A stretch of 64,000 nucleotides of DNA from an uncultured Gammaproteobacteria bacterium (GTDB lineage: Bacteria > Pseudomonadota > Gammaproteobacteria > Steroidobacterales > Steroidobacteraceae). Below the pieces are notes generated by a model. The model was not told the DNA's origin, ran no database searches, and saw only the letters and a list, made by a program, of their open reading frames with translations. The stretch lies in NCBI GenBank assembly GCA_963786705.1, contig CAWBAG010000027.1, forward strand, positions 1-64,000. Reading direction: 5' to 3'. Positions 2,463-42,783 of this stretch are shown here, piece by piece. How positions within the stretch are numbered: the stretch's first letter is position 1; each line of letters begins with the position of its first letter. The translations under genes and the position numbers were made by a program.

Positions 2463-3048
2463 TCAGCCGTTTGGTTGTGGTCTCGGGCCCGAATTCCGCC
2501 AGACGCCGATGATCAGCCAGGCTCCGCCTACGGTGAGCAACATTCCGCCGGCAGACGTCACCGATGGCCCTATCGGGTCGACCTGAACGCCGATCGCGCC
2601 GCCACCACTGACGGCCAGCAACGCCAGCGACACCGCGGCCATGGCGACGCCGAGCAGCACACACAACCCGCCGGCGACCGCCCACCGGCGGAGCAGGGCG
2701 GCCACCACCGGCGTCGCGCACAACAGTCCGATGCAGCGGCCAACCCGCCACCAGTGAGCCCAACACTCCGTCGCCGGCGATTCCGAGTCGATCGATCATG
2801 CCGGTCACCGCGTAGCTGGAGCGCCGAACCTGCCCGGAGACGACCCACGGCAGGAATGAACCGATCAACGCAAGGACCAGGCCGGCGGCGGCGAACACCA
2901 GCGCGGCCACCCTGCCGGCATGGGTCGTGGGCCGGTTTTCGAGCGCAGGAATCACGGGACCAGTGTCGAGGATGATCACGCTGCGTAGAAATTCAGTGAC
3001 GTTCGTCATGGATGTCCGAATTGGGACTAATGGGTTTAGCGTGACCAC
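2463..3048 (-). CDS. small integral membrane protein (Rv1476-like position upstream of ripA), frameshifted near 2750
   Basis: The N-terminal part is in the ORF 2260..3048 frame up to ...SLVAGW. The C-terminal TM-rich part is in the ORF 2463..2723 frame. Confidence 0.5.
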
Positions 3049-9755: not shown

Positions 9756-10559
9756 ATGACCGATCAGCTCGGCACCGGACTGCTGTCCGGCAAGAACCTG
9801 CTCATCACCGGCATCATCACCGAGGCGTCGATCGCGTTCCACACGGCTCGGCTGGCCCAGGAGCAGGGCGCCAACGTGGTGCTGACCGGGTACGGGCGAC
9901 TCTCGCTCGTCGAGCGCATCGCCCAGCGGTTGCCGCAGCCCGCGCCGGTGATCGAACTCGACGTCACCGACAAGGCGCAGTTGGACTCGCTCGCCGACCG
10001 GACCCGTGAACACGTGGACGGCCTGGACGGGGTACTGCATTCGATCGGGTTCGCGCCGGCCGCCGCTCTCGGCGGTAGCTTCCTGGACTGCCCGTGGGAG
10101 GACGTGGCGACGACGGTGCACACCTCGGCGTACTCGCTCAAGGCCCTCGCGGTGGCCTGCCTGCCGTTGATGTCCGCCGGCGGATCAATCGTCGGCCTCG
10201 ACTTCGATGCCCGCCAGGCGTGGCCCGCGTACAACTGGATGGGTGTGGCCAAGGCCGCGCTCGAATCCGTGACCCGTTACCTGGCAAGGGATCTCGGTCC
10301 GCAGGGCATCCGGGTGAATCTGGTGTGTGCCGGTCCGATCAAGACGATGGCGGCGAAGTCGATCCCCGGTTTCATCGATCTGGAGAACGGTTGGACCGGG
10401 CGCGCACCGCTGGGCTGGGACACCTCCGACCCCACCCCGGTGGCCAGGGCGGCAGTGGCACTGCTGTCCGACCTGTTCCCGGCCACCAGTGGCTCGATGG
10501 TGATGGTCGACGGCGGCTTCCACGCGCTGGGGTTCGGTGTCTCCGAGGTTGCTGACTGA
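9756..10559 (+). CDS. inhA: NADH-dependent enoyl-ACP reductase InhA
   Basis: The 267-aa product (LLSGKNLLITGIITEASIAFHTARLAQEQGA...) matches the InhA family hallmark sequence. Confidence 0.9.
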   Translation: MTDQLGTGLLSGKNLLITGIITEASIAFHTARLAQEQGANVVLTGYGRLSLVERIAQRLPQPAPVIELDVTDKAQLDSLADRTREHVDGLDGVLHSIGFAPAAALGGSFLDCPWEDVATTVHTSAYSLKALAVACLPLMSAGGSIVGLDFDARQAWPAYNWMGVAKAALESVTRYLARDLGPQGIRVNLVCAGPIKTMAAKSIPGFIDLENGWTGRAPLGWDTSDPTPVARAAVALLSDLFPATSGSMVMVDGGFHALGFGVSEVAD

Positions 10560-15254: not shown

Positions 15255-16180
15255 AAACCGTCCGCACGGTGCGCGATCTGCGCGCGGCTCTGTCGACGCA
15301 GCGCGCGGCCGGTGCGTCGGTCGCGTTGGTGCCCACCATGGGTGCCCTGCACGACGGGCACCTGGAACTGGCCAGGCGGGCCAGGGCCGAGAACGACGTC
15401 GTGGTGATGTCGATCTTCGTCAACCCCGCGCAATTCAACGACCCGGCCGATCTGGCCGCCTACCCGCGGGACGAGGCGGCGGACGCGGAGCTGGCCGCCG
15501 GGGTCGGCGTGGATCTGCTGTTCGTGCCGGCGGCGGCGGAGATCTACCCGCCCGGGTTCTCGGTGACCGTCGCGCTGCACGGGCCGATCGTGGAGACCCT
15601 CGAGGGCATCCAGCGCGGCGCCGGGCATTTCCGCGGTGTCACCACGGTGGTCAGCAAGCTGCTCAACATCGCCGGACCGCAGCGGGCGTACTTCGGCGCC
15701 AAGGACGCCCAGCAGGCACGGGTGGTGCGGGCCATGGTGGCGGATCTGAACATCGACACCGAGATCGTGACCGTGCCGACCGTCCGCGAACCCGACGGGC
15801 TGGCGATGTCGAGCCGCAATCGGCGGCTCAGCCCGGCCGAACGCCGCCAGGCGACGGGTCTGTTCGCTGCGCTGCGCGCCGCGCAGCAGATGAACTCCGG
15901 CGGCGAAGGGCGCGGTCAGGTCATCCTGGCCGAGGCCAACCGGATCCTGACCGAGCACGGCATCACGCCGGAGTACCTCGCGCTGGTCGACGCCGACACG
16001 TTCCTGCCCGCCACCACCGTCGGAGTGCAGCCGGCGGTGCTGCTGGTGGCCGCGCAGATCGGCAACACCAGACTGATCGACAATGTGCACCTGGATGCGC
16101 CCAATCGGTCAGGTAGCCGTCGATGGGCCACCAGGATCACGGTCAACGTGCGCCTGGGTGCGCCGAAGTCGGTCAGGTAG
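15251..16180 (+). CDS. panC: pantoate–beta-alanine ligase PanC; the 3' end runs into a tandem repeat
   Basis: The product begins MKTVRTVRDLRAAL and carries PTMGALHDGH and the full PanC core. The C-terminal roughly 30 codons are encoded by the repeat array. Confidence 0.85.
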   Translation: MKTVRTVRDLRAALSTQRAAGASVALVPTMGALHDGHLELARRARAENDVVVMSIFVNPAQFNDPADLAAYPRDEAADAELAAGVGVDLLFVPAAAEIYPPGFSVTVALHGPIVETLEGIQRGAGHFRGVTTVVSKLLNIAGPQRAYFGAKDAQQARVVRAMVADLNIDTEIVTVPTVREPDGLAMSSRNRRLSPAERRQATGLFAALRAAQQMNSGGEGRGQVILAEANRILTEHGITPEYLALVDADTFLPATTVGVQPAVLLVAAQIGNTRLIDNVHLDAPNRSGSRRWATRITVNVRLGAPKSVR

Positions 16181-16300
16181 CCGTCGATGGGCCAACCAGG
16201 ATCACGGTCAACGTGCGCCTGGGTGCGCCGAAGTCGGTCAGGTAGCCGTCGATGGGCCAGCCAACATCACGTCACCGTCCGCCTGGGCCCCCCAAGTCGG
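16095..16300. repeat. MIRU-like tandem repeat, about 3 copies of a 64-65 bp unit
   Basis: The motif tcggtcaggtagccgtcgatgggcca recurs at 16105, 16169 and 16234. The array overlaps the panC stop, as mycobacterial MIRUs often do. Confidence 0.8.
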
Positions 16301-16441
16301 TGAGGTGACAACAACCACTGGTGGAGTGGATCACACGTCCCACCGGCGCTGCTTTCCGGTGGTGGAATGGAACATTGCTGCCACCACGGCGGTTTCATCC
16401 TCATGCAGCGAATATCCGGCAGGCCAGCGAAGGAGCAGCCG

Positions 16442-25753: not shown

Positions 25754-26640
25754 TCAACTGCAGCAGCGAGGCCAGGAAGTTGCGGATTGCGTTCTGCCGT
25801 GTCGGTGCGCGGACGAGGAGGACGCTTCGGTAGACGAAATACGCGCCGCCGGCTGCGGCACAGGCGAGATAGGAGTTCCCTGCGCCCCAGGCCGACCGGC
25901 AACAGCGCGAGCAACACGAGCAGCACGGTGTGCCCGAGGATCACGCGAGCCGCGACGCGATCGCCGATACACCACCGGCAGCATCGGCACGCCGGCGTCG
26001 GCGTAGTCCTGCCGGTAATACATCGCGAGGCTCCAGAAGTGCGGCGGGGTCCAGAGAAACAGGATGACCGCAAACGTCCATGCGGCCGGGCCCAGGCCTG
26101 GATTCACCGCCGCAGCACCGGCCAGCACGGCGAAACTGCCGGCGAGGCCGCCGACGACGATGTTCAGCCACGTCCGCCGCTTGAGCCAGAGCGTGTAGAC
26201 GACGCCGTAGGTGAACGCGCCGAGGAACACGAAGGCGGCTGCCAGCCAGTTCGTCGCCAGGCCGGCCGAGACGACCGCAACGGCCAGCAGCAAGCCGATC
26301 ACCGCGAACCATGGCGCAGCCGCCGTCGAGCTGCCCGGTGACGAACGGACGGCCGCGAGTGCGCGACATGCGCGCGTCGAGGTCGCGTTCGGCCAGGTGA
26401 TTGAGCGCACCGGCGCTCGCAGCGGCCAGGAAGACCGCGATCGCAAGAACCAGCAACTGCGCACGGCGGCAACCCGGGGCCCTGGGCCATCGCGACGCCC
26501 GCGATGCCGGCGAACATGATCTCGAGGGCGATGCGCGGCTTGAAGACCTCGACCGTGCTCCGCCAGGAAGCCCGATTCGCTGCGAGGTCCGCATCCTGCG
26601 CGACTGCTTGGTGCACGTTCGCTCCTACCGCAGCGGCCAG
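25754..26640 (-). CDS. ctaB: protoheme IX farnesyltransferase (heme O synthase) CtaB/CyoE, at least 3 frame changes
   Basis: The N-terminus is RSTVEVFKPRIALEIMFAGIAGVAMA. The middle is ALNHLAERDLDARMSRTRGRPFVTGQL. The C-terminus is FVFLGAFTYGVVYTLWLKRRT...LWTPPHFWSLAMYYRQDYADAGVPMLPVV. All three parts are in different frames. Confidence 0.7.
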
Positions 26641-28328
26641 ACCTCGGCAAGGTACTTCCAGTTCACGAAGTAGTACAGGACGAACGACACGAAGAACACG
26701 CCGACCAGCACGATCGTGCCGGGGATCTTGAGCGTTCCCTCGTTGCCGTAGCGCGCCACGGCCGCGGCCGATGCCGCGCCGGACACCGGACCGAGCTGCA
26801 CCACTTCGCTGTCGCCGATCCTGCGGCCGAAGAAGACCGAGCAGACGACGACGAGAATGTACATCGCGCCGCCGATCGCGGCCATGATCGCGGACATGCC
26901 GTTGAGCGCCAGCATCAGGAACGCCGCGGGCGAGAACTGGAACTGGCGTGAGCGCGTCCGCGAACGTGATGTCCCAGTGCCTGCGGGGCACGCCGAGCGT
27001 GCCGGCGCCCATCATGAACAGCGAGATGCCGGCAACGCCCAGCCCGAAAATGTAGGGCTGCAGCTGGGCGACCTTCCTGAACATGACCTCGCGACGGAAG
27101 ATCAGCGGTACGAGGAGATACGTGATCGCCATGAACGCGAGCGTCGTGCCGGCGACCACGGTCGCGTGGAAATGCCCCGGCACGTACAGCGTGTTGTGCA
27201 TGATCAGGTTGATCTGCTCGGTGCCCATCACGACGCCGGAGATGCCGCCGAGGAAGCCGAACATGACCAGCGACAGGAACATGCCGGCAAATGCCGGGTT
27301 GCCCCAGGGCGCCTTGCGCAGCCACTCGAACAGGCCCTTGTTGTAGCCCTTGGCGCGCTGCGCCGCCTCGATGGCGCCCGGCACCGTCATGCCGTGGATC
27401 ATGCTGCCGAGCACGGCGAGGTACATCGCGTAGCTGGTGTTGAAGATCTTCCAGCTCGAGCTCACGCCGGGCTCGACCAGCATGTGGTGCGCGCTCGCGA
27501 GCTGCAGGAACAGGATGTACATGAGGAACGCCATGCGGCTGACTTTCTCGGAGATCGGCTTGGCGCCGAGCACCATGGCGCCGATCGCGTACCACACGGC
27601 GACGTGCGCGGAGACGTTGATCTGCTGCGAGGAGTGGCCCATGCCCCACCAGACCAGCTTGTACATCAGCGGGTCGATGCCGCTGATGATGCCGAGCGAC
27701 CAGAGGAAGGTCGGGATGAGGATGATCGCGCCGCAGGCCAGCGTGAACACGGCGATGATCGCCGCCGTGATGGCGCCGAAGGTGACCAGCGGCACCGATC
27801 CCTCGTAGGTCTTCTCGTCCTTGGCAACGACCAGCGTGCCGAAGAAGACCGCGCAGCCGATCAGGGCACCCACGGCGAACAGGACGAGGCCGAGGTAGAA
27901 GTGCGGCGCCGCCAGCAACGGCGCGTAGGAGGTGAACATGACCGAGGAGTTGCCCTGGAGCACCGCGACGTTGGTCATCAGCGCGCCGACCAGCATCAGC
28001 CAGAACTGGACCCATCCCCAGCGTGGCGCGGCAAGCCGTGAATTGAGCAGTACCGCGGAGGCGAAATACAGCACCGCCATCTCGAAGAAGATGATCCAGA
28101 CGAGCAGCACGTCGATGCCGTGTGCGGTCAGCGCGCAGGTAGAACCAGTCGGCCGGCAGCAGGTGCACGGCAGGCCAGCGTGTCAGCGCGACCGACAGGC
28201 CGAACAGGCCACCGACGAGCAGGAACACGACGGCGGCGACGGCGTTCGACCTTGATGAGGTTTTCCGCCGAACGGTCGATCCGCAGGCCGGTCGTCGGGC
28301 AGGTGCGAAAGATGGTTGCAACTGTCAT
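26625..28328 (-). CDS. cbaA: heme-copper oxidase subunit I, B-family (ba3-like) CbaA, several frame changes
   Basis: Most of the protein is in ORF 26299..28110 (GHFHATVVAG, HHMLVEP). The C-terminal TM helices are in ORF 26625..26915. The N-terminus is in other frames. Confidence 0.7.
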
Positions 28329-28338
28329 GACGGCCCGC

Positions 28339-28875
28339 TCAGTTCTTGTCGACGACGTAGATGCGACCGGTCATCGTGTGATGCCCGAAGCCGCAGTACT
28401 CGTTGCAGACGACGCCGAACTGGCCGGATTGATTCGGCGTCATCGTCACGACCATCTCGTATCCGGGGTGTACCTGGATGTTGATGTTGACGGGCTGGAG
28501 GGAGAAGCCGTGCTGCAGATCGATGGACGAGAGGTGCAGCCGGTAGGTCTCGCCCTTGACGAACTCGAGCATCGGCCACCACATGTAGACGCGACCCATC
28601 ATGTAGACGTCGCTGCCGGGCGGGGGTCGCACGACCGGGAATGCACCTTCCTGGCGCACCGTGTACGTCTCGACCATCTTGTCGACCTTGGCCGCGAAGT
28701 CGGCTGGCGTCGTCCTGTAGGCCTCGTTCGAGAGATTCTGGCTTCCGGCGCCATGCCAGTAGATCATCATGAAGAACATCACGATTCCCCACAGGAACGC
28801 GATGCTGGCCCAGATCAATTCGACCTTGTGAACGGGCTCTTTCCACCAGTTTGCGCCCGGAGATGCGATTGACAT
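28339..28875 (-). CDS. cbaB: ba3-type cytochrome c oxidase subunit II (CuA)
   Basis: A 178-aa product with a single TM and the CuA motif CNEYCGFGHHTM. Confidence 0.85.
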   Translation of the reverse strand: MSIASPGANWWKEPVHKVELIWASIAFLWGIVMFFMMIYWHGAGSQNLSNEAYRTTPADFAAKVDKMVETYTVRQEGAFPVVRPPPGSDVYMMGRVYMWWPMLEFVKGETYRLHLSSIDLQHGFSLQPVNINIQVHPGYEMVVTMTPNQSGQFGVVCNEYCGFGHHTMTGRIYVVDKN

Positions 28876-29061: not shown

Positions 29062-29239
29062 GAGACCCCCTGGCGTTCGCCTGTCTATGTCGTACGGGTC
29101 GCCCCTGCCACCCGGTACATCCGGCGCTTGTTAGCACTTACGTGAGCGTACGTCCTTGATATAGATCAAGCGCACTGCAAAAAAGAAAGCTGCGCCGCAC
29201 CGGGACTGTGCCCGCAGACGCTGTCTCGACCGGTCGCGG

Positions 29240-29511: not shown

Positions 29512-30504
29512 TCATCGGGTCGGCCGCAGAAATCGCAGCAGCGCGACCGTGGCCAGCACGAGCAACGCCGCCACGCCGTTGTGCGCGACTGCCAGCGGCA
29601 ACGGGAAGGTCCTCAGCACCATCACCGGCCCGAGCAGGAGCTGGGCTGCGAGCACGGTCGCGAGGACAACCCCGGTCGTGCGGACACCGCCTGACCGCCC
29701 GAGACGAATCGCCTTCCAGGCCGTGACGGCCAGCACGAGCGCCGTGACGATCGCACCGAGCCGGTGCGTGAAATGGATTGCCACGCGCGCCGGGTGGTCG
29801 AGCACGCCGCCCTCGTAATCGATGCCGAGACCGCGCCAGAGCACGAAGGCATCGCGGAAATCCATCTGCGGCCAGTACGACGCCTGGCAAGTCGGGAAGT
29901 CGGGACAGGCGAAGGCCGCGTAATTGGAACTGACCCAGCCGCCGAGCATGATCTGCACCGCGAGCACGACCAGGCCGAACACGGCCCACGTGCGCAGGCT
30001 GCGCTCGACGGCAGGCGGGGTCGTCCGCGCAGGCTCGAGGTACAGCCACCACAGCAGCGCCATCGTGGTGAGTCCGCCCACGAGGTGCGCCGAGACGATC
30101 AGCGGCTTCAGCAGCAGCGTTACCGTCCACATGCCGAGCAATCCCTGGAACACGACGAGCAGCACCAGCGCTGCGGGCAGCCCCACCGGTTGCCGCCGGT
30201 CGCGACGGTTGCGCCACGCGATCACCGCGAGCGCGACAATCACGAGGCCGAGCGTCGACGCGAGATAGCGATGCACCATTTCCTTGAGCGCCTTGTCCGC
30301 CTCGAGCGGCCGCTCGGGATACGCGGCGTTCGCGACCGCGGAGTTCTCGACCGCGTCGCCGACCGTCAGGTGGCCGTAGCAGCCCGGCCAGTCCGGGCAG
30401 CCGAGGCCCGCGTGGCTCAGGCGCACGTACGCGCCGAGCACGATCACGCAGAAGGCGAGGACCGTGCCCAGCAGGCAGAGCCGGCGAAATGTCGAGTTGT
30501 GCAT
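29512..30504 (-). CDS. ctaA: heme A synthase CtaA/COX15
   Basis: The ORF is intact from MHNSTFRRLCLLGTVLAFCVIVLGAYVRL and carries the conserved Cys pair CPDWPGC. Confidence 0.85.
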   Translation of the reverse strand: MHNSTFRRLCLLGTVLAFCVIVLGAYVRLSHAGLGCPDWPGCYGHLTVGDAVENSAVANAAYPERPLEADKALKEMVHRYLASTLGLVIVALAVIAWRNRRDRRQPVGLPAALVLLVVFQGLLGMWTVTLLLKPLIVSAHLVGGLTTMALLWWLYLEPARTTPPAVERSLRTWAVFGLVVLAVQIMLGGWVSSNYAAFACPDFPTCQASYWPQMDFRDAFVLWRGLGIDYEGGVLDHPARVAIHFTHRLGAIVTALVLAVTAWKAIRLGRSGGVRTTGVVLATVLAAQLLLGPVMVLRTFPLPLAVAHNGVAALLVLATVALLRFLRPTR

Positions 30505-30518
30505 GACGTAGACCTGGG

Positions 30519-31133
30519 CTAGCCGATGTGCGAGAGTCGCAGCAATTTCCGGACGTCCGCAAGCAGCGCCATGTCCGGCGCCGCCGCGGAGTAGCTCAGC
30601 ACGAGATTGCCGAGCGGATCGACGAGGTAGAGGCGTCCCGCGACGGCATCCGCGGTGCCCGGGAAAGCCGCAAGGAGCGCGCGTCCACCGGCTTCGTCGC
30701 GCGGCAGCACGACCGTGAGATCCGGATGTTCGGCCGACAGGTACGCGCGATCGCAGCAACCACCGGTCGCCAGGAACACGCGCTGCACGCGGTCCATGTC
30801 CTTGTTGAGCGCGATGCGCGACTGCCGCGAGAGGTAGAGCAGCTTGCGACAGCGTTCGTCACAGGCGCCGTCGCCGACGAAGAGCATGGTCCACTTGCCT
30901 CGCAGGAGGTCGACTGGCATGGCCACGCCGTCCATGTCCGCTAGCGATGTGACCGGCAGCGGCACGGCGGGATCGATCAGGTCGCCCTGGTTCGTGCCGC
31001 CGACCGGCCGCCAGTCGGTCGGGCCGTAGTAGAGCCAGAACGCCACGGCCAGCGGCACGAAGAACATCGCCGCGAGCAGCAGCAACTGGCGCTGACCGCG
31101 GCGCGGGGACTCGGTGGGGCTGGGCGCGTTCAT
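30519..31133 (-). CDS. membrane-anchored thioredoxin/SCO-like hypothetical protein (cox-cluster associated)
   Basis: A 204-aa product with an N-terminal TM and Cys motif FVGDGACDERC. It sits between surf1 and ctaA. Confidence 0.6.
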   Translation of the reverse strand: MNAPSPTESPRRGQRQLLLLAAMFFVPLAVAFWLYYGPTDWRPVGGTNQGDLIDPAVPLPVTSLADMDGVAMPVDLLRGKWTMLFVGDGACDERCRKLLYLSRQSRIALNKDMDRVQRVFLATGGCCDRAYLSAEHPDLTVVLPRDEAGGRALLAAFPGTADAVAGRLYLVDPLGNLVLSYSAAAPDMALLADVRKLLRLSHIG

Positions 31134-36473: not shown

Positions 36474-37004
36474 TCAATACGATCGATGCTCGAGCGCAGG
36501 GGATTCGCTCGTCCTTCCCACCAATTGCCGGAGCCGCCCCGCAAGACTGCGGCGCTCGTCCTCCATGAGAAACCGGCCCACCTCGCAGGCGATTCCGTGC
36601 GACTCGATCACGAGCCGGCTCGGGTGCAGCACCACTCGCGGATCGCGGAGTTTAACCGTCGCCCAATGGCGTGGAAATACCAACCGACTCGATTCGCCGG
36701 GCCCGCGTCGCTCGACCACGACCGAGGCGTCCGAGACCAGGATGACCTCGCGGCATTCTCCGGAGCGCAGACTGGCCTGCACGGCCCACCAGAGCAACCA
36801 GATCTCGAGCCCGGCGATTGGCAGCACCGGCCACAGGCCCTGGACCGCGAAGAAGACGGCAATGCCGAACGTGAGCACGGCCAATCCACCCACGAACGCC
36901 CGGGCCGACCGCGGGGTCAATGCACAGTTGGGCACCAGTTCGATCCGATGCTCGACGGGCGTGGCGGGCGAACGGTTGTGCGTGGCGATGACCATGGTTC
37001 GCAC
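36474..37004 (-). CDS. DUF2244 integral membrane protein (cox-associated)
   Basis: The 176-aa ORF is intact. Confidence 0.55.
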   Translation of the reverse strand: MRTMVIATHNRSPATPVEHRIELVPNCALTPRSARAFVGGLAVLTFGIAVFFAVQGLWPVLPIAGLEIWLLWWAVQASLRSGECREVILVSDASVVVERRGPGESSRLVFPRHWATVKLRDPRVVLHPSRLVIESHGIACEVGRFLMEDERRSLAGRLRQLVGRTSESPALEHRSY

Positions 37005-37084
37005 GGGCTGGGAGGGTCCCGAATGTAGCCGCGTCCGTCGGTTGCGACAACGCGCGGACTCGGGGTCGCGACCGCCCGCGGGAT

Positions 37085-37828
37085 CTAGTCCCGTCGCGTG
37101 CGTGCGGCCTGCGCCAGCAGCATCGCGCGCAACCGGGGCGCGCGCTGCAACGCAGCAACAGCGGCATTGCCGATTGCGGAAGGTTCACCCGCTTGCCCGA
37201 GCCAGGGCACGAGCGCAAGCGGCGGCGAGCCGAGCAAAGCGGTCAGCGTGGCGACGTTGTGTTCGTGCCGCTCGAAGCCTGGATCGATCGACACGCCGAC
37301 CCAGCCGAGCCAGGGACAACGGCCGCCTCGTGCGATGGCTTCATGGGTGAGCACGGCATGGTTCAGGCAGCCGAGCGTCAGGCCGACCACGAGCACCACG
37401 CCAAGCCCCAGCCGCTCCGGGAAGTCGCTCAGGAATCCGGCGGGATGCAGGGGCACGCGCCAGCCGCCAGCACCTTCGACGAGCGCGACTTCGGCGCCGG
37501 GCGTGACTCTGGCGTACCAGTCGGCCAGGGTGGCGACGGAGATCGCAACGCCCGCTTCAGCGGCGGCGATGTGCGGGGCGATCGCAGGTTCGAAGCAGTA
37601 CGGGTTCACCTCGTCGTAGGTTCGGGCGAGCGGACTTGCGGACTGCAGCTCGAGCGCGTCGTCGTTGCGCAACGGCGCGCCGGAGCCTGCGCTACGTCCG
37701 CCGGAGGCCACTGGCTTCAAGCCGACCGCGCGCACGCCTTCCAGCGCCAGCACTCGCAGCATGGCCGCCGTCACGAGGGTCTTGCCCACCCCCGTGCTGG
37801 TGCCCGTGACGAAGACCCCAGGCGTCAT
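37085..37828 (-). CDS. bioD: dethiobiotin synthetase
   Basis: The product begins MTPGVFVTGTSTGVGKT. Confidence 0.85.
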   Translation of the reverse strand: MTPGVFVTGTSTGVGKTLVTAAMLRVLALEGVRAVGLKPVASGGRSAGSGAPLRNDDALELQSASPLARTYDEVNPYCFEPAIAPHIAAAEAGVAISVATLADWYARVTPGAEVALVEGAGGWRVPLHPAGFLSDFPERLGLGVVLVVGLTLGCLNHAVLTHEAIARGGRCPWLGWVGVSIDPGFERHEHNVATLTALLGSPPLALVPWLGQAGEPSAIGNAAVAALQRAPRLRAMLLAQAARTRRD

Positions 37829-37925
37829 GGGTTAATAAAGACAAAGTTGCCAGTCATGTGTAATTTATCAATTGAGAGATACCAGTAGTACAAAATACTT
37901 GATAAATGGTTACACCTCGACAGGG
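37829..37925. promoter_or_regulatory. about 97-bp AT-rich island (roughly 30% GC) between bioC and bioD with inverted repeat GTGTAATTTATCAA ... TTGATAAATGGTTACAC; candidate internal promoter or operator
   Basis: The sequence is ttaataaagacaaagttgccagtcatgtgtaatttatcaattgagagataccagtagtacaaaatacttgataaatggttacacc, set in otherwise roughly 70% GC DNA. Confidence 0.4.
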
Positions 37926-37939
37926 CCAGCGCCGGCTGG

Positions 37940-38806
37940 TTACGGCGTCGAATTGCGTCGCACGAGCCGGGACACCGGCACGCGGACTTCGCCGTGCGCC
38001 TGCGGGACCTTCGTACGGACCGGCCCGGCCGGGCACCAGGCTTGCCCGAACACCACCTCATAGGTCGCCGGCAGCTTCCCATCCTTGCGATGCTGCTCGT
38101 ACGCGCCGAGGACACGCGCAAACGTCGCCTTGCCGGTCAGCCCTGTCGGCCGTCCGGCGTTGGCGTTGTGCGCGCCGATCGTCTTCAGGTCGCGCATCAG
38201 GTCGCGCGCATCGTCATAGGTCAGCGTGTAGCGCTCGACGTCCAGTACCGGTTCGGCAAAGCCCGCCCGCACGAGCGCGTCGCCGAGGTCGTGCATGTCG
38301 ATGAACCGGTTGACGTGCGCGTGACCCGGATCGGCCGCCTGCCATGCGCGTCGCAACTCGTACAGCGTGTCCGGCCCGAGCGTCGCGAACGTCACGACGC
38401 CTCCCGGACGCAGGACCCGGCGTATCTCCCGGAATACCTCGTCCGGATCGTTGCACCACTGCAGCATCAGGCTCGAGAAGACCATGTCCACGACCCCGGT
38501 GACGAGCGGCAGCGCGGCGGCGTCGGCCGCGACTCGATCGAAGCGGCGCAACAGCGTCTGCCGGCGCCCCGCCTCCAGCAACATGCCCATCGCAATATCG
38601 AGCGCGCAGACCCGGGCCCTCGGGTAGCGCCGCTTGAGCGCGATCGTCCCGTGCCCCGTCCCGGCGCCCGCATCCAGGACGACCTTGGGTTCGAGCCGCA
38701 CGACGTCGAGCCGGGCGAGCAGCTCCTCGCGCACCCTGGCCTGGAGCACGGCGGCCGCGTCGTAGTCCCGCGCTGCCTGTGTGAAAGCCGTCGCGACCCG
38801 GCTCAT
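37940..38806 (-). CDS. bioC: malonyl-ACP O-methyltransferase BioC
   Basis: SAM-methyltransferase motif VLDAGAGTGHGT. The BioC region runs from MSRVATAF. Confidence 0.8.
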   Translation of the reverse strand: MSRVATAFTQAARDYDAAAVLQARVREELLARLDVVRLEPKVVLDAGAGTGHGTIALKRRYPRARVCALDIAMGMLLEAGRRQTLLRRFDRVAADAAALPLVTGVVDMVFSSLMLQWCNDPDEVFREIRRVLRPGGVVTFATLGPDTLYELRRAWQAADPGHAHVNRFIDMHDLGDALVRAGFAEPVLDVERYTLTYDDARDLMRDLKTIGAHNANAGRPTGLTGKATFARVLGAYEQHRKDGKLPATYEVVFGQAWCPAGPVRTKVPQAHGEVRVPVSRLVRRNSTP

Positions 38807-39718
38807 GTCGAGCGTGAGCGCCGCTGCCTCGGTCGGTTGTGGACTCGCGGCGCCTGCGCGTGACAGGCCCGGCGCCCTGCGCTCGAACACCGGCACGCCC
38901 ACGACCGCGGCCGGCGGCGGCCTCGGCTCGAGATGGCGCCCGAGAAACGGCACGATCGCGTCCAGCACGTCGTCGGGGTGCGAGAGAAACGGTGCATGCC
39001 CGGCCTTCGCGACCTGGACGAAACGCGCGGCAGGCAATGCCTGTGCGAGAGCCCGGCCAGCCCCGGCCGGCGTGATGCGGTCGTGCTCGCCGGCGATCAC
39101 GAGCGCCGGAACCGCGATCCCGCCGAGGGAGCCGCGCAGGTCCGCGTCGCGCAGGATGCGGATCCCGGCCTGCAGCGCGCGGGGGTCGGGTTCGCCGTGG
39201 CTCGCGAGGTTCGCGCGCAGGGTGCGCAGTGCCTCGCTTGCTCGCTCGTCACCCCAGGTCTGCAGCGCGAGAAAATTGGCGATCGTGCGCCGGAAGTCCC
39301 GGTCGAGGCCGGTCGCGAATCCGTCGAGGACATCCGGCTTCATGCCGTCAGGCCAGTCGTCGCGGGCCAGGAAGCACGGCGTCGTCGCGACCAGCACGAG
39401 CGCGGCGAGCTCGCCCGGGCGCGAGCGTGCGAGTTCGAGCGCCACCATGCCGCCGAGCGACCAGCCGAGCACGCCGGCCCCTCGCGGAACGTGCGCCGAA
39501 ACAGCCCGGGCGAGCGCGGCCAGGTCAGGCGCGCCATCCGTCCAGGGACTGCGGCCGTGGCCGGGAAGGTCGATCACGTGCAGGCGCGCGTGTGCTGCCA
39601 GCCGGTCGAGCCAGGGTCCCCACATGCCGCCGTGCAAGGCCCAGCCGTGCAGCAGCACGAGGTCCGGACCCGCACCCCGCGTCTCGACGTGCAGCGGCGC
39701 TCGACCGGGATCGCTCAC
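38807..39718 (-). CDS. bioH: pimeloyl-ACP methyl ester esterase BioH (alpha/beta hydrolase), read-through in frame into bioC with no intervening stop
   Basis: LVLLHGWA and GWSLGG are present. The GTG start forms a GTGA overlap with the bioF stop. No stop codon separates it from bioC. Confidence 0.7.
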
Positions 39719-40920
39719 GCCGCGGCGCCGGGCAGCACATCGCGCGTGCGCAGGGTGCGCAGCGCGTCGAGCAGGCGCTCGAGGTCGGCGTCCGAGTGGG
39801 CCGCCGAAAACGTGAAGCGCAGGCGTGACGTTCCGGCAGGCACGGTCGGCGGCCGGATTGCTGGAACCCAGATCCCCAGGTCGAAGAGCGCGGCGCTCGC
39901 CGCCAGCGCGGCGGCTTCGCTGCCCACGACCAGCGGCTGGATGGGAGTGCGCGATGCCATCAGGTCGAGGCCGAGTTCGGCAGCTCCGGCGCGAAAACGG
40001 GCGGCGAGATCGAGTACCCGCCCGCGCCGCCACGGCTCGGACGTCATCACGTGCAGCGACGCGCGCGTCGCGGCGGCCACGGCGGGCGGCAGCGCCGTCG
40101 TATAGATGTAGGTGCGGGCTCGCTGCACGAGCGTCTCGACCAGCGTGTCCGAGCCGGCGACGAACGCGCCGTGCGTGCCGGCCGCCTTGCCCAGCGTGCA
40201 CATGAGCACCGGCACGTCGTCGACGCCGAGTCCGGCTTCCTCGACCGAGCCGGCCCCGGTCGGGCCGAGCACGCCGAAACCGTGCGCATCGTCGACCACA
40301 AGCGTGGCGGCCGCTGCACGGCACACGGCCGCAATCTCGCGCAACGGCGCGACGTCCCCATCCATGCTGAAGACGCCGTCCGTCATGACGAGTGTCCCGC
40401 GCGACGGCAAACCGCCGGCAGGCTGCGCCAGGCGGCGGCGCAAGGCCGCGACGTCGCCATGCGCATAGCGCGTCAGACGCGCTCCCGTCGCCAGCCCCGC
40501 ATCGAGGAGCGAGGCGTGGTCGAGCCGGTCGGCGACGACGCGGTCACCCCGGCCGGCGAGCACGGCTGCGACGGCGAGATTCGCCATGTAGCCGTTCGAG
40601 AACAGCAGTGCGCGCGGCCGGCCGACGAACTGCGCCAGCTCCCGCTCGAGTTCGTGATGCTCGCGGCAATGGCCGCTCACGAGGTGCGACGCACCGCTGC
40701 CTACGCCCCACTCGCGTGCACTGGCCGCGAACGCGTCGACGACCGCCGGGTGGTTCGCAAGCCCGAGGTAGTCGTTGCTGCAGAAAGCGAGGCAGTCCCG
40801 CCCGTCCACCCGCAGACGGACGGATCCGGCGGCGCGCGCGGTGACCGTCCGCCGATGGCGCGAACGTCCTGCGCCGGCCAATGCCGCGAGCCCGGCGGCG
40901 AGCTGCTGCTCGGCATCCAC
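39715..40920 (-). CDS. bioF: 8-amino-7-oxononanoate synthase BioF
   Basis: FCSNDYLGL and the PLP-lysine region TLGKA are present. The start is approximate (GTG near 40917, overlapping the bioB stop). Confidence 0.8.
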   Translation of the reverse strand: MDAEQQLAAGLAALAGAGRSRHRRTVTARAAGSVRLRVDGRDCLAFCSNDYLGLANHPAVVDAFAASAREWGVGSGASHLVSGHCREHHELERELAQFVGRPRALLFSNGYMANLAVAAVLAGRGDRVVADRLDHASLLDAGLATGARLTRYAHGDVAALRRRLAQPAGGLPSRGTLVMTDGVFSMDGDVAPLREIAAVCRAAAATLVVDDAHGFGVLGPTGAGSVEEAGLGVDDVPVLMCTLGKAAGTHGAFVAGSDTLVETLVQRARTYIYTTALPPAVAAATRASLHVMTSEPWRRGRVLDLAARFRAGAAELGLDLMASRTPIQPLVVGSEAAALAASAALFDLGIWVPAIRPPTVPAGTSRLRFTFSAAHSDADLERLLDALRTLRTRDVLPGAAA

Positions 40921-40940: not shown

Positions 40941-41930
40941 TCAGGGTGAGGCGGCGGCCGCGGACTCGGCCTCGAGGCCGAGGCGTGTGAACAACCGCTC
41001 GTCGTGGCTGCGGCCCGGGTTCGGCGTGGTCAGCAGCCTCTCGCCGTGGAAGATCGAGTTTGCGCCGGCCAGGAAGCACAGCGCCTGCACGGCGTCGCTC
41101 ATGTCGGTGCGGCCCGCGGAAAGCCGCACGTGCGAACGCGGCATCAGCAGCCGGGCGGTGGCGATGGCGCGCACGAAATCGAGTGGGTCGAGTTCCGGCA
41201 GGCCGTACAACGGCGTGCCCGGCACCTGCACGAGCTGGTTGATCGGCACGCTCTCGGGATGCTGCGGCAGCGTCGCGAGCGTGTGCAGCAAGCCGATGCG
41301 GTCGCTCTCGGATTCGCCCATGCCGAGGATGCCGCCGCAGCAGACGCTCAAGCCCGCGTCACGCACCGCCTGCAGCGTATCGAGGCGGTCCTGGTAGGTC
41401 CGGGTCGTGATGACCTCGCCGTAGAACTCGGGCGAGGTGTCCAGGTTGTGGTTGTAATAGTCGAGGCCGGCGTCCTTCAGCTCGCACGCCTGCTGCGGCG
41501 TCAGCATGCCGAGCGTGGCGCAGGTCTCGAGGCCGAGCGCGCGCACTTCGCGGACCATCTGCTTCACCTGCTCGAGCTGCTTCGGCTTCGGGTTGCGATA
41601 CGCGGCGCCCATGCAGAAGCGCGTCGCGCCCTGGGCCCTGGCGGCCTGCGCCGCGGCGACGACCGCGTCGACTTCCATGAGTTCCTCGCGCTCGAGCCCC
41701 GTGTCGTAGCGGACGCTCTGCGGGCAGTAGTCGCAGTCCTCCGGGCAGGCGCCCGTCTTGACGGACAGCAGCGTGCTCACCTGGACCCGGTTCGGGTCGA
41801 AGTTCTCGCGGTGGACGCGTTGCGCGTGAAAGACCAGGTCGTTGAAGGGCAGTTCGAATACCGCGCGGGCCTCGTCGAGGGTCCAGTCGCTGCGCACTTC
41901 GCCGAGGCGGTTCAGGTCGAAAGCGGTCAT
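40941..41930 (-). CDS. bioB: biotin synthase BioB
   Basis: The radical-SAM motif [10 protein letters not shown] is present. Confidence 0.9.
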
Positions 41931-42048
41931 ACGCAAATCCTTGTTTTCCGGCCAGAAATTCGGGCTCGCGCCGGCGGGGGTGCCGGGCGCAAGGTCGTGG
42001 CCGGACGACGCGGCAGTATTCGGGCGGAGCGCGGCGGCTGTCAACCAA

Positions 42049-42783
42049 TGGCCATGTTCGAAGTCGACAGGTGGCTGGAGCGCGGCGCGGACTGGTTGCT
42101 GCCGTCGCGGTGCGCCGTATGCCGGGGCCGCGGCCAGCGGCAGGGCCTCGATCTCTGCGCCGCCTGCGAGGCCGACCTGCCGTACCTCCACTCCCCGTGC
42201 CTGCGCTGCGGCTTGCCGAGCGAGGCGCACGACGCGCCGGACGGGCCGGGCTGCACTCGTTGCCGGGGCATCGACCTTTCTTTCGCGCGCTGCTACGCGC
42301 CGTATCCTGTACGCGGCCCCGCTCGACGGCCTCGTGCAGGACCTCAAGTATGGCGGCGCGCTCGCGAACGCGCGCGTGCTCGGGACGCTGCTCGGCCGCG
42401 CGGTTCGCGCGCTCGGCCTGCACCTCGACGTCGACCTGCTCGTGCCCGTGCCGCTGCACCCGTCCCGCCTGCTCGAGCGCGGCTTCAACCAGTCGCACGA
42501 GATCGCGCGGTTCGCGGCGCGCGAGGTCGGTATACGCTGTGTGCCGCGCGCTTTGCGCCGGCAGCGATCGACCTCGCCGCAGGTCGGGCTCGCGCGCGAG
42601 GCGCGCGCAGCGAACGTGGCCGGGGCCTTCGGTGCCGATCGGGACCAGGTCGCGGGCCGGCGCGTGGCGCTCGTCGACGACGTCGTGACGACGGGCAGCA
42701 CCGCTCGTGCGGCCGCAAGGCAATTGCGAACCGCGGGCGCGTTCACCGTGGACGCGTGGTCGGTCGCGCGGGTGCCGGGCTGA
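42049..42783 (+). CDS. comF: ComF-family phosphoribosyltransferase (ComFC/GntX-like), frameshift near 42295
   Basis: N-terminal Cys clusters (CAVC...CAAC, CLRC...CTRC) are present. The PRT motif [13 protein letters not shown] is in another frame. Confidence 0.7.

Follow-up and report, generated by a model that had tools for sequence, protein, structure and literature searches.

Why should a GC-rich genome keep a strongly AT-rich stretch of non-coding DNA between two neighbouring biotin genes? The question is raised by a 64-kb stretch of Steroidobacteraceae DNA (here called the window; all coordinates refer to it, and its mean GC content is 0.687), in which bioC and bioD are separated by an AT-rich spacer. 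A first-pass annotation, made from the letters of the sequence alone, had described positions 37829-37925 as an AT-rich island of about 30% GC with an inverted repeat inside it. The island is real, although its GC content of 0.361 is higher than that figure (the core at 37829-37915 has 0.32). The lowest 97-bp segment lies 6.3 standard deviations under the window mean, and the island is the only one in the 64 kb with a GC content <0.42 over 60 bp, the next dip (29127-29191) reaching only 0.42-0.43. As detailed below, the new observation is the family-wide fixation of one extreme AT island at one operon junction, conserved by composition; where it appears, translational coupling and the bioD Shine-Dalgarno (SD) sequence have been lost.

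The genes of the locus all lie on the minus strand, in the transcription order bioB (start near 41930), bioF, a bioH-bioC open reading frame (ORF), a 111-bp gap, bioD, a DUF2244 gene, coxB and coxA. Consequently, bioC is found at higher coordinates than bioD, and the gap previously noted between these two co-directional genes is confirmed (Table 1). Within the gap, the 25-28 nt nearest to bioC are GC-rich, and from there to the start codon of bioD the sequence is strongly AT-rich.

Relatives of the locus were collected by a metagenome scan (80 loci) and by contig look-ups (five loci), and the comparison set comprised ~45 Steroidobacteraceae-like loci. The closest BioD proteins to that of the window were metagenomic, some of them with the source name 'Steroidobacteraceae bacterium', and a scan of reference genomes returned only distant relatives with BioD at most 49% identical. 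Two groups could be distinguished. In the first, BioD is at least 54% identical to that of the window, the GC content of the locus is 0.64-0.73, and the spacer, which usually measures 60-180 bp, contains an AT-rich stretch; L014, L019 and L031 are the exceptions. BioD of the island-bearing clade is 54-73% identical to that of the window, apart from L009 (85%), whose contig starts inside bioD and therefore does not contain the junction. The second group is more distant and has the same bioB-F-H-C-D-DUF2244-coxB-coxA order, and many of its members are equally GC-rich, but they have no bioC-bioD spacer: the gap is mostly -4 to +14 nt, typically with an ATGA or GTGA overlap of stop and start codons. 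The junction in the window had been called atypical, and these distant relatives, in which bioC and bioD abut or overlap, bear this out.

The position of the island turned out to be remarkably constant. In the close-clade loci (161 kb) all 37 islands (60-bp GC <0.40) lie at the bioC-bioD junction, and the same holds for 3/3 islands (60-bp GC <0.42) in three further loci covering 47 kb with flanks of up to 10 kb, which brings the total for the relatives to 40 of 40 over ~208 kb. Other non-coding DNA in these loci is GC-rich: this holds for the divergent region of bioB/comF, for the gap between bioD and DUF2244 and for the halves of several spacers outside the island. Since the neighbouring non-coding DNA is GC-rich, the AT-richness is not the default drift in these genomes but is maintained at one place.

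What is conserved in the spacer is its composition and not its sequence. In locus pairs with 85-91% identical flanking coding DNA the spacers are 46-82% identical while staying AT-rich, spacer lengths across the relatives range from 4 to 1285 bp, and a multiple alignment of the closest spacers was uninformative (mean column identity 38%). The comparison of the junction in homologous genomes that had been proposed as a check thus revealed an intergenic region, though not the same sequence, with composition kept in its place. A short word nevertheless recurs: ATTGAT is present in 16 of 39 orthologous spacers (3.0 expected) and TATTGATA in 6 of 39 (0.2 expected), and a Gibbs sampler recovered the weak de novo motif tTTATTGATAa. 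The word is oriented, with TTGAT found 26 times on the sense and 10 times on the antisense strand and clustering in two zones relative to the bioD start, -50..-62 and -5..-13; on the sense strand T exceeds A in 31 of the 39 spacers.

Several features of the junction itself are variable. Two loci carry an 88-aa gene inserted between the AT island and bioD (L011 1063-1329; L017 1863-2129) that, judged by sequence, resembles a Phd/YefM-type antitoxin and is preceded by a palindromic region and an SD of its own; L017 contains further inserted ORFs up to ~2900. In both loci the island is kept, with the antitoxin cassette downstream of it in the same orientation. The presence of this cassette in L011 and L017, together with the extra cargo in L017, indicates that the bioC-bioD junction tolerates or attracts insertions. 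One subclade has C-rich heptamer tandem repeats (CCCCTAA, CCCTATC, CCCCTTC, CCTCTAA) directly 5' of bioD, at L011 ~1380-1454, L012 ~2965-3000, L017 ~2975-3000 and L091 ~9970-10000, with further sites at L024 ~1-45 (other strand), at L041 1721-1830 (an inverted pair) and in L054 and L057. Their copy number is variable, and the complementary strand, (GGGG-N3)n, could form G-quadruplexes; the window's spacer contains none of these repeats. Lastly, ~14 of 48 close-clade contigs end just inside bioD or no more than 175 bp before it (L009, L013, L020, L021, L024, L027, L032, L034, L037, L042, L047, L049, L054 and L057), a frequency several-fold over a rough guess, made without calculation, for random breakage. 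These contig ends may reflect variability between strains or a fall in sequencing coverage at the island.

Translation of bioD starts differently in the close clade and in its more distant relatives. Counting an SD as present when the duplex with the anti-SD in the 3' tail of 16S rRNA reaches -4.4 kcal/mol or stronger, only 1 of 27 close-clade bioD starts has an SD, as compared to 24 of 40 in more distant relatives, and the corresponding mean duplex energies are -0.6 and -5.2 kcal/mol. In the window, bioD lacks an SD (best duplex +1.5 kcal/mol versus -5.2 for bioB). SDs are present for bioB, coxB and the inserted antitoxin gene, and the island-less clade members L014 and L019 have SD-like sequences (GGAAGG / AGGGG) upstream of bioD. 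The region around the bioD start is, moreover, weakly structured: the minimum free energy (MFE) of the -40..+20 segment is -7.7 kcal/mol in the window, whose random 60-mers average -21.4 ± 5.6 (0/300 as weak), and its mean is -7.7 in the close clade against -14.1 kcal/mol in the distant relatives. As bioD of the clade has neither an SD nor coupling to bioC, its translation must rely on what the island provides.

A detail of the region just before the start codon deserves mention. In seven of the 39 spacers (L015, L018, L022, L024, L039, L048 and L055), TTGAT precedes the start codon by 5-13 nt, as in TTGATCATT-ATG and TTGATAATT-ATG. UGAUC is the complement of the GAUCA that borders the 16S rRNA anti-SD on its 5' side, so this arrangement could represent a non-canonical ribosome contact.

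The fast turnover at the junction could also be explained without any function, if the spacer were neutral and hypervariable, being either a hot spot for insertions or what is left of an ancient one, while AT-biased mutation kept it AT-rich and bioD was expressed by read-through. Faster sequence change than in the flanks, lengths of 4-1285 bp, the antitoxin cassette, the variable heptamer repeats and the contigs ending near bioD (14 of ~48) would all fit such a scenario. It is harder to reconcile with the GC-rich non-coding DNA that persists in the same spacers and in adjacent gaps, with the retention of the island in nearly all of the clade despite BioD being only 54-73% identical to that of the window, with a recurrent and oriented word, and with the loss of the bioD SD, which makes expression depend on upstream sequence. 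Neither were traces of mobile DNA detected: 72,556 plasmid and 50,697 phage records contained no similarity to the spacer, and a search for a miniature inverted-repeat transposable element (MITE) or other mobile scar found no target-site duplication at the repeat and no second copy in the 64 kb. We therefore regard the neutral explanation as improbable. The idea of a foreign-DNA scar, and likewise that of a misassembled insert, is not supported by the same searches, nor by the occurrence of the feature in >40 independent assemblies.

A cis-acting role in bioD expression, in line with the promoter and operator options raised by the first-pass annotation, is the best reading because the AT island is kept at the junction in nearly all of a family-level clade. 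Specifically, the conservation of position and composition, the fast sequence turnover, the loss of SD and coupling, the weak structure and the oriented recurrent word, all of which can be read directly from the loci, lead us to propose that the clade conserves the spacer as an expression module encoded by composition. It would set bioD apart from bioB-bioF-bioHC as a separate unit with an SD-independent start and probably with an internal promoter. We put this forward tentatively, with a confidence a little short of even. Ribosomes would load on bioD without an SD through an unstructured U/A-rich leader, by standby binding of the S1 type, or, in some lineages, on a transcript with a very short leader or none. 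The island would, in addition, supply an internal promoter, for which the extended -10 sequence TGATAAATT at 37870-37862 is the best candidate in the window, and it may be bound by a protein. Initiation from TGATAAATT is predicted at ~37855-37857, which is ~27-29 nt upstream of the bioD ATG and coincides with the ATG of a speculative 10-codon upstream ORF; the stop codon of this ORF overlaps the bioD ATG (ATGA), and the ORF is not conserved in the relatives.

Among known systems, the closest parallel to the way in which the element appears to work is an internal promoter joined to an A/U-rich region for SD-independent initiation. With intra-operon promoters it shares an AT-richer non-coding segment between co-directional pathway genes, just 5' of the downstream gene, and retention upstream of whatever gene comes next (as in L011 and L017). 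It differs from them in that no canonical -35/-10 pair is present above chance, in its 28-36% GC within a 69% GC genome, which is far more AT-rich than the other promoter regions of the loci, and in that composition is conserved across the clade while sequence is not. A/U-rich leaders such as that of Escherichia coli rpsA act as translational enhancers that depend on ribosomal protein S1 and allow initiation independently of an SD. The bioD leader resembles these leaders and leaderless mRNAs in having no SD, a U/A-rich sense strand and very weak predicted structure; it differs from rpsA-type leaders in belonging to a single gene of an otherwise SD-using genome and in having no conserved leader hairpins, and a role of S1 is only presumed. 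As in leaderless mRNAs, a -10-like hexamer is found 5 nt before the start codon in five relatives: in 5 of 25 spacers, where 0.65 would be expected, TAnnnT occupies precisely the positions -11..-6, as it would for a leaderless bioD mRNA. A further hint of promoter activity is the retention of the island upstream of the like-oriented cassette in L011 and L017.

A number of observations weigh against the proposed module, mostly on the promoter side. The TAnnnT spike at -11 becomes marginal once it is corrected for ~40 positions. A two-hexamer scan with the sigma-70 consensus identified no sense-strand promoter in the window's spacer, the only match being antisense, and with a sigma-70 position weight matrix (PWM) the mean best scores were 5.0 for the sense strand, 5.4 for the antisense strand and 5.1 for shuffled spacers, which means that there is neither an excess nor a sense bias. 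The recurrent motif stands only ~1 bit above shuffled controls. L011, L012, L017 and L091 have the C-rich heptamers instead of A/U-rich sequence directly before bioD. The other promoter regions (bioB/comF, upstream of DUF2244) are not AT islands, so a promoter alone does not explain the extreme composition. Finally, all relatives collected were too distant for their spacers to be aligned with that of the window, and the BioC search returned no relative above 76% identity.

The antisense sigma-70-like match is probably a by-product of AT-richness. Two other promoter types were considered and rejected: the recurrent TTGATA as a -35 element, since suitable -10 hexamers follow in only ~9 of 39 spacers, and a sigma-54 promoter, for which TGGCAA is present but, on reading the sequence, the GC at -12 is not. 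A literature search on an internal promoter at bioD with biotin, and on biotin in Steroidobacter, yielded nothing relevant.

An extreme composition with little sequence conservation is also what might be expected of a nucleation site for a nucleoid-associated protein (IHF, Fis or a silencer resembling H-NS/MvaT), by which transcription into bioD would be set or, under certain conditions, silenced. The high-affinity H-NS nucleation motif is tCGATAAATT (Lang et al. 2007, PMC2094087), and TTGATAAATT at 37871-37862 matches it at 9 of 10 positions, in an AT-rich context and with the central T-A step. Allowing at most two mismatches, the H-NS 10-mer is found in 14 of 39 spacers where 6 are expected, and the IHF core with at most one mismatch in 10 of 39 (5.6 expected). 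The island is, furthermore, the sole AT island across >270 kb of window and relatives, and a function tied to composition rather than to sequence suits the way in which nucleoid proteins bind. However, the H-NS and IHF enrichments rest on the same TTGAT core as all other motifs tested, and the H-NS motif was defined in enterobacteria. The sense bias of 26:10 and the T>A skew would be unexpected for non-directional binding, there is no H-NS-like gene within the 64-kb window, and a family-wide silencing of a housekeeping biotin gene lacks an obvious reason. On balance, we consider a nucleation site unlikely as the explanation of the island, albeit one that is compatible with the proposed expression module.

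We then consider the inverted repeat of the window. Its arms, GTGTAATTTATCAA (37858-37871) and TTGATAAATGGTTACAC (37899-37915), are present as had been described; they are imperfect outside a perfect 9-nt core, ATTTATCAA / TTGATAAAT at 37863-37871 / 37899-37907, and are separated by 27 nt. Only ~0.5% of dinucleotide-type shuffles of the spacer (~1 in 200) give a perfect inverted repeat of 9 nt, and the suggested motif search, carried out over the 64-kb window, found TTGATAAAT nowhere but in this spacer. The repeat consists of two inverted copies of tTTATTGATAa, one in sense at -43 and one in antisense at -75 from the bioD start. The claim that the repeat is the functional core is not supported by the comparison with relatives, as the 39 orthologous spacers have no more inverted repeats than their shuffles (2/39 with p<0.05, median p 0.46). 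Since only the word recurs across the clade, and the window's repeat is made of one sense and one antisense copy of it, we take the repeat to be a lineage-specific way of arranging an element that is found across the clade. In this view it is not the conserved functional core, though it may be a protein-binding site.

If such a site were the operator of a specific dimeric regulator, biotin-responsive or other, acting at an internal bioD promoter, the low chance probability of the 9-nt arms (p ~0.005), the uniqueness of the repeat word in the 64 kb and the overlap of the bioD-proximal arm with the candidate extended -10 would be accounted for. Isolated repeats in relatives would fit as well, namely a perfect TTGAT-N4-ATCAA box in L010 and an 8/7-nt repeat with a 15-nt spacer in L036/L038. 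Yet repeats are not enriched over the 39 orthologous spacers, the 27-nt gap between the arms is unlike that of known bio operators, and the bioB promoter region contains no related site: the bioB/comF divergent region (~41930-42060) is GC-rich and has no related palindrome. We therefore consider an operator of this kind distinctly unlikely.

The more specific suggestion of a BirA- or BioR-type operator is not supported by the pattern searches, in which the BirA, BioR and BioQ patterns matched about as well as in shuffles. In E. coli-type bio operons, bioO is an imperfect palindrome, TGTAAACC-N14-17-GGTTTACA, that overlaps the bio promoters. The window's repeat is likewise an AT-rich imperfect palindrome at biotin genes, and the outer ends of its arms, TGTAA / TTACA, are similar to the half-site cores of bioO; its arms, however, are 27-42 nt apart instead of about 16, its location is within the operon and not at the promoter of bioB, and relatives do not share it. 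A search for TGTAAACC / GGTTTACA at a distance of 14-17 nt gave 6 mismatches of 16 as the best match in the window's spacer and the shuffled expectation over the 39 spacers. For the BioR operator TTATMKATAA the best window match had 3 mismatches and the spacer set was only slightly above shuffles; for the BioQ operator TGAAC-N3-GTTCA the best window match had 4 mismatches, with the spacer set at chance level, and Fur patterns likewise matched the spacers at chance level. The arms of the window contain the half-site words of the FNR/ANR box (ATCAA and TTGAT), but these half-sites face outward, ~27 nt apart. The best 14-mer for TTGAT-N4-ATCAA in the window's spacer has 3 mismatches, full boxes are rare in the orthologous spacers, and perfect ones were found only in the L010 spacer and at window position 29156 (TTGATATAGATCAA). 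Because these membership tests failed, the element does not belong to any named bio-operator family. No birA gene was identified in the 64-kb window. DnaA boxes, dif/XerCD sites, Tus-Ter and Xanthomonas-type LexA sites were also looked for, by eye only and without statistics, and gave no convincing match.

At the RNA level, the spacer might act as an A/U-rich entry site for RNase E and/or as a hairpin that ends and stabilises the bioBFHC segment, giving bioD and perhaps the DUF2244-cox genes a different mRNA half-life. Its U/A-rich character, its lack of structure save for the repeat hairpin and its T bias on the sense strand are in agreement with this possibility, as is the folding of the repeat into a 9+5-bp stem in the sense RNA. 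The fold around the repeat is, however, not significantly more stable than shuffles (z = -1.6), no hairpin is conserved in the orthologues, and an Rfam search of 37000-38800 gave only chance-level matches, none of them near the gathering score. No terminator-like site was detected among intrinsic terminators sought in 37400-38400, and the hairpin at 37926-37939 is not a canonical terminator as no T-run follows it. Nothing in these data separates an RNA-level element from an A/U-rich translation initiation region, but we consider the former very improbable as the explanation of the island.

The proposed module could be extended to a sequence-agnostic 'operon splitter', although we think this bolder version rather unlikely. 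The island would have arisen once, at the bioC-bioD junction of a Steroidobacteraceae lineage, where it would have replaced both coupling and SD, and it would be selected on AT content alone while sequence, length and cargo turn over. It would drive a leaderless or SD-less bioD, in the window perhaps by way of a leaderless 10-codon ORF, and it might serve as an input for biotin- or growth-responsive control of a kind that is not yet known. Should the module be real, it would be a natural case of regulatory function that resides in base composition, not in conserved sequence, in a family of roughly 65-73% GC, and would offer a tractable system for operon splitting and for SD-less translation in Proteobacteria. 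It would also indicate where the biotin pathway might be controlled in a group whose bio regions, as far as examined here, contain no operator recognisable as that of BirA, BioR or BioQ. If the island were no more than a weak promoter within the operon, with a leader free of structure, it would be an ordinary intergenic region of unusual composition.

Table 1. Features at the bioC-bioD junction of the window.
Feature	Position	Strand	Basis and remarks
BioC (malonyl-ACP O-methyltransferase), part of the continuous bioH-bioC ORF	37940..38806	-	stop TAA 37942-37940; TIGR02072 BioC 8.7e-67
bioHC-bioD intercistronic spacer, 111 bp, overall GC 0.42	37829..37939	-	sequence
Small GC-rich hairpin CCAGC-CGGC-GCTGG directly past the bioC stop	37926..37939	-	sequence, MFE structure; no T-run
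bioC-proximal repeat arm, sense strand GTGTAACCATTTATCAA, antisense copy of the recurrent word	37899..37915	-	sequence, word scan
AT-rich core, GC 0.32, lowest 60-bp window 0.28	37829..37915	-	composition scan
Sigma-70-like TTGAGA-16-AATACT, antisense into bioC	37872..37899	+	consensus scan, 9/12 positions; also PWM scan
bioD-proximal repeat arm, sense strand TTGATAAATTACAC, sense copy of the clade's recurrent word ATTGATAA	37858..37871	-	sequence, word scan
Candidate extended -10 TGATAAATT (TGnTAnnnT)	37862..37870	- (sense)	read from sequence; TAAATT listed at -39
10-codon upstream ORF ATG ACT GGC AAC TTT GTC TTT ATT AAC CCA TGA	37825..37857	-	read from sequence; speculative
bioD (dethiobiotin synthase), ATG at 37828, end 37085, no upstream SD	37085..37828	-	TIGR00347 1.7e-35

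The analysis of the locus also yielded observations on its neighbouring genes. A single ORF of 794 aa is matched by both TIGR02072 BioC (8.7e-67) and TIGR01738 BioH (3.5e-75). This bioH-bioC reading frame runs without an internal stop from 37940 to 40324 (minus strand), and the same is seen in L017 (6-1715), L091 (8154-9884) and L092 (8188-9924); in relatives, fused bioH-bioC proteins are annotated at 569-578 aa. With BioH and BioC domains in one stop-free ORF and fused proteins called in relatives, the clade appears to encode a BioH-BioC fusion enzyme. Downstream of bioD, the GC-rich 80-bp bioD-DUF2244 gap contains a sigma-70-like TTGTCG-N17-TACATT at 37050-37022 (minus strand), which is a candidate for a separate promoter of the DUF2244-coxBA genes.

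The perfect FNR/ANR-type box TTGATATAGATCAA lies elsewhere in the window, at 29156-29169, in the AT dip at 29127-29191 (GC 0.43). This dip separates a CtaA/COX15-like gene (30759..29512, minus strand) from a gene for a CuA-type oxidase subunit II-like protein (28875..28339, minus strand); after the latter comes a gene for heme-copper oxidase subunit I (28110..26299). These identities were judged from the translations only. The position of a perfect box beside oxidase genes suggests oxygen-responsive control of a second terminal oxidase. Two tandem repeats were also seen in the window, one at 1830-2210 (36 bp x 10.6 copies, 89% matches) and one at 16081-16306 (65 bp x 3.5 copies, 89%).

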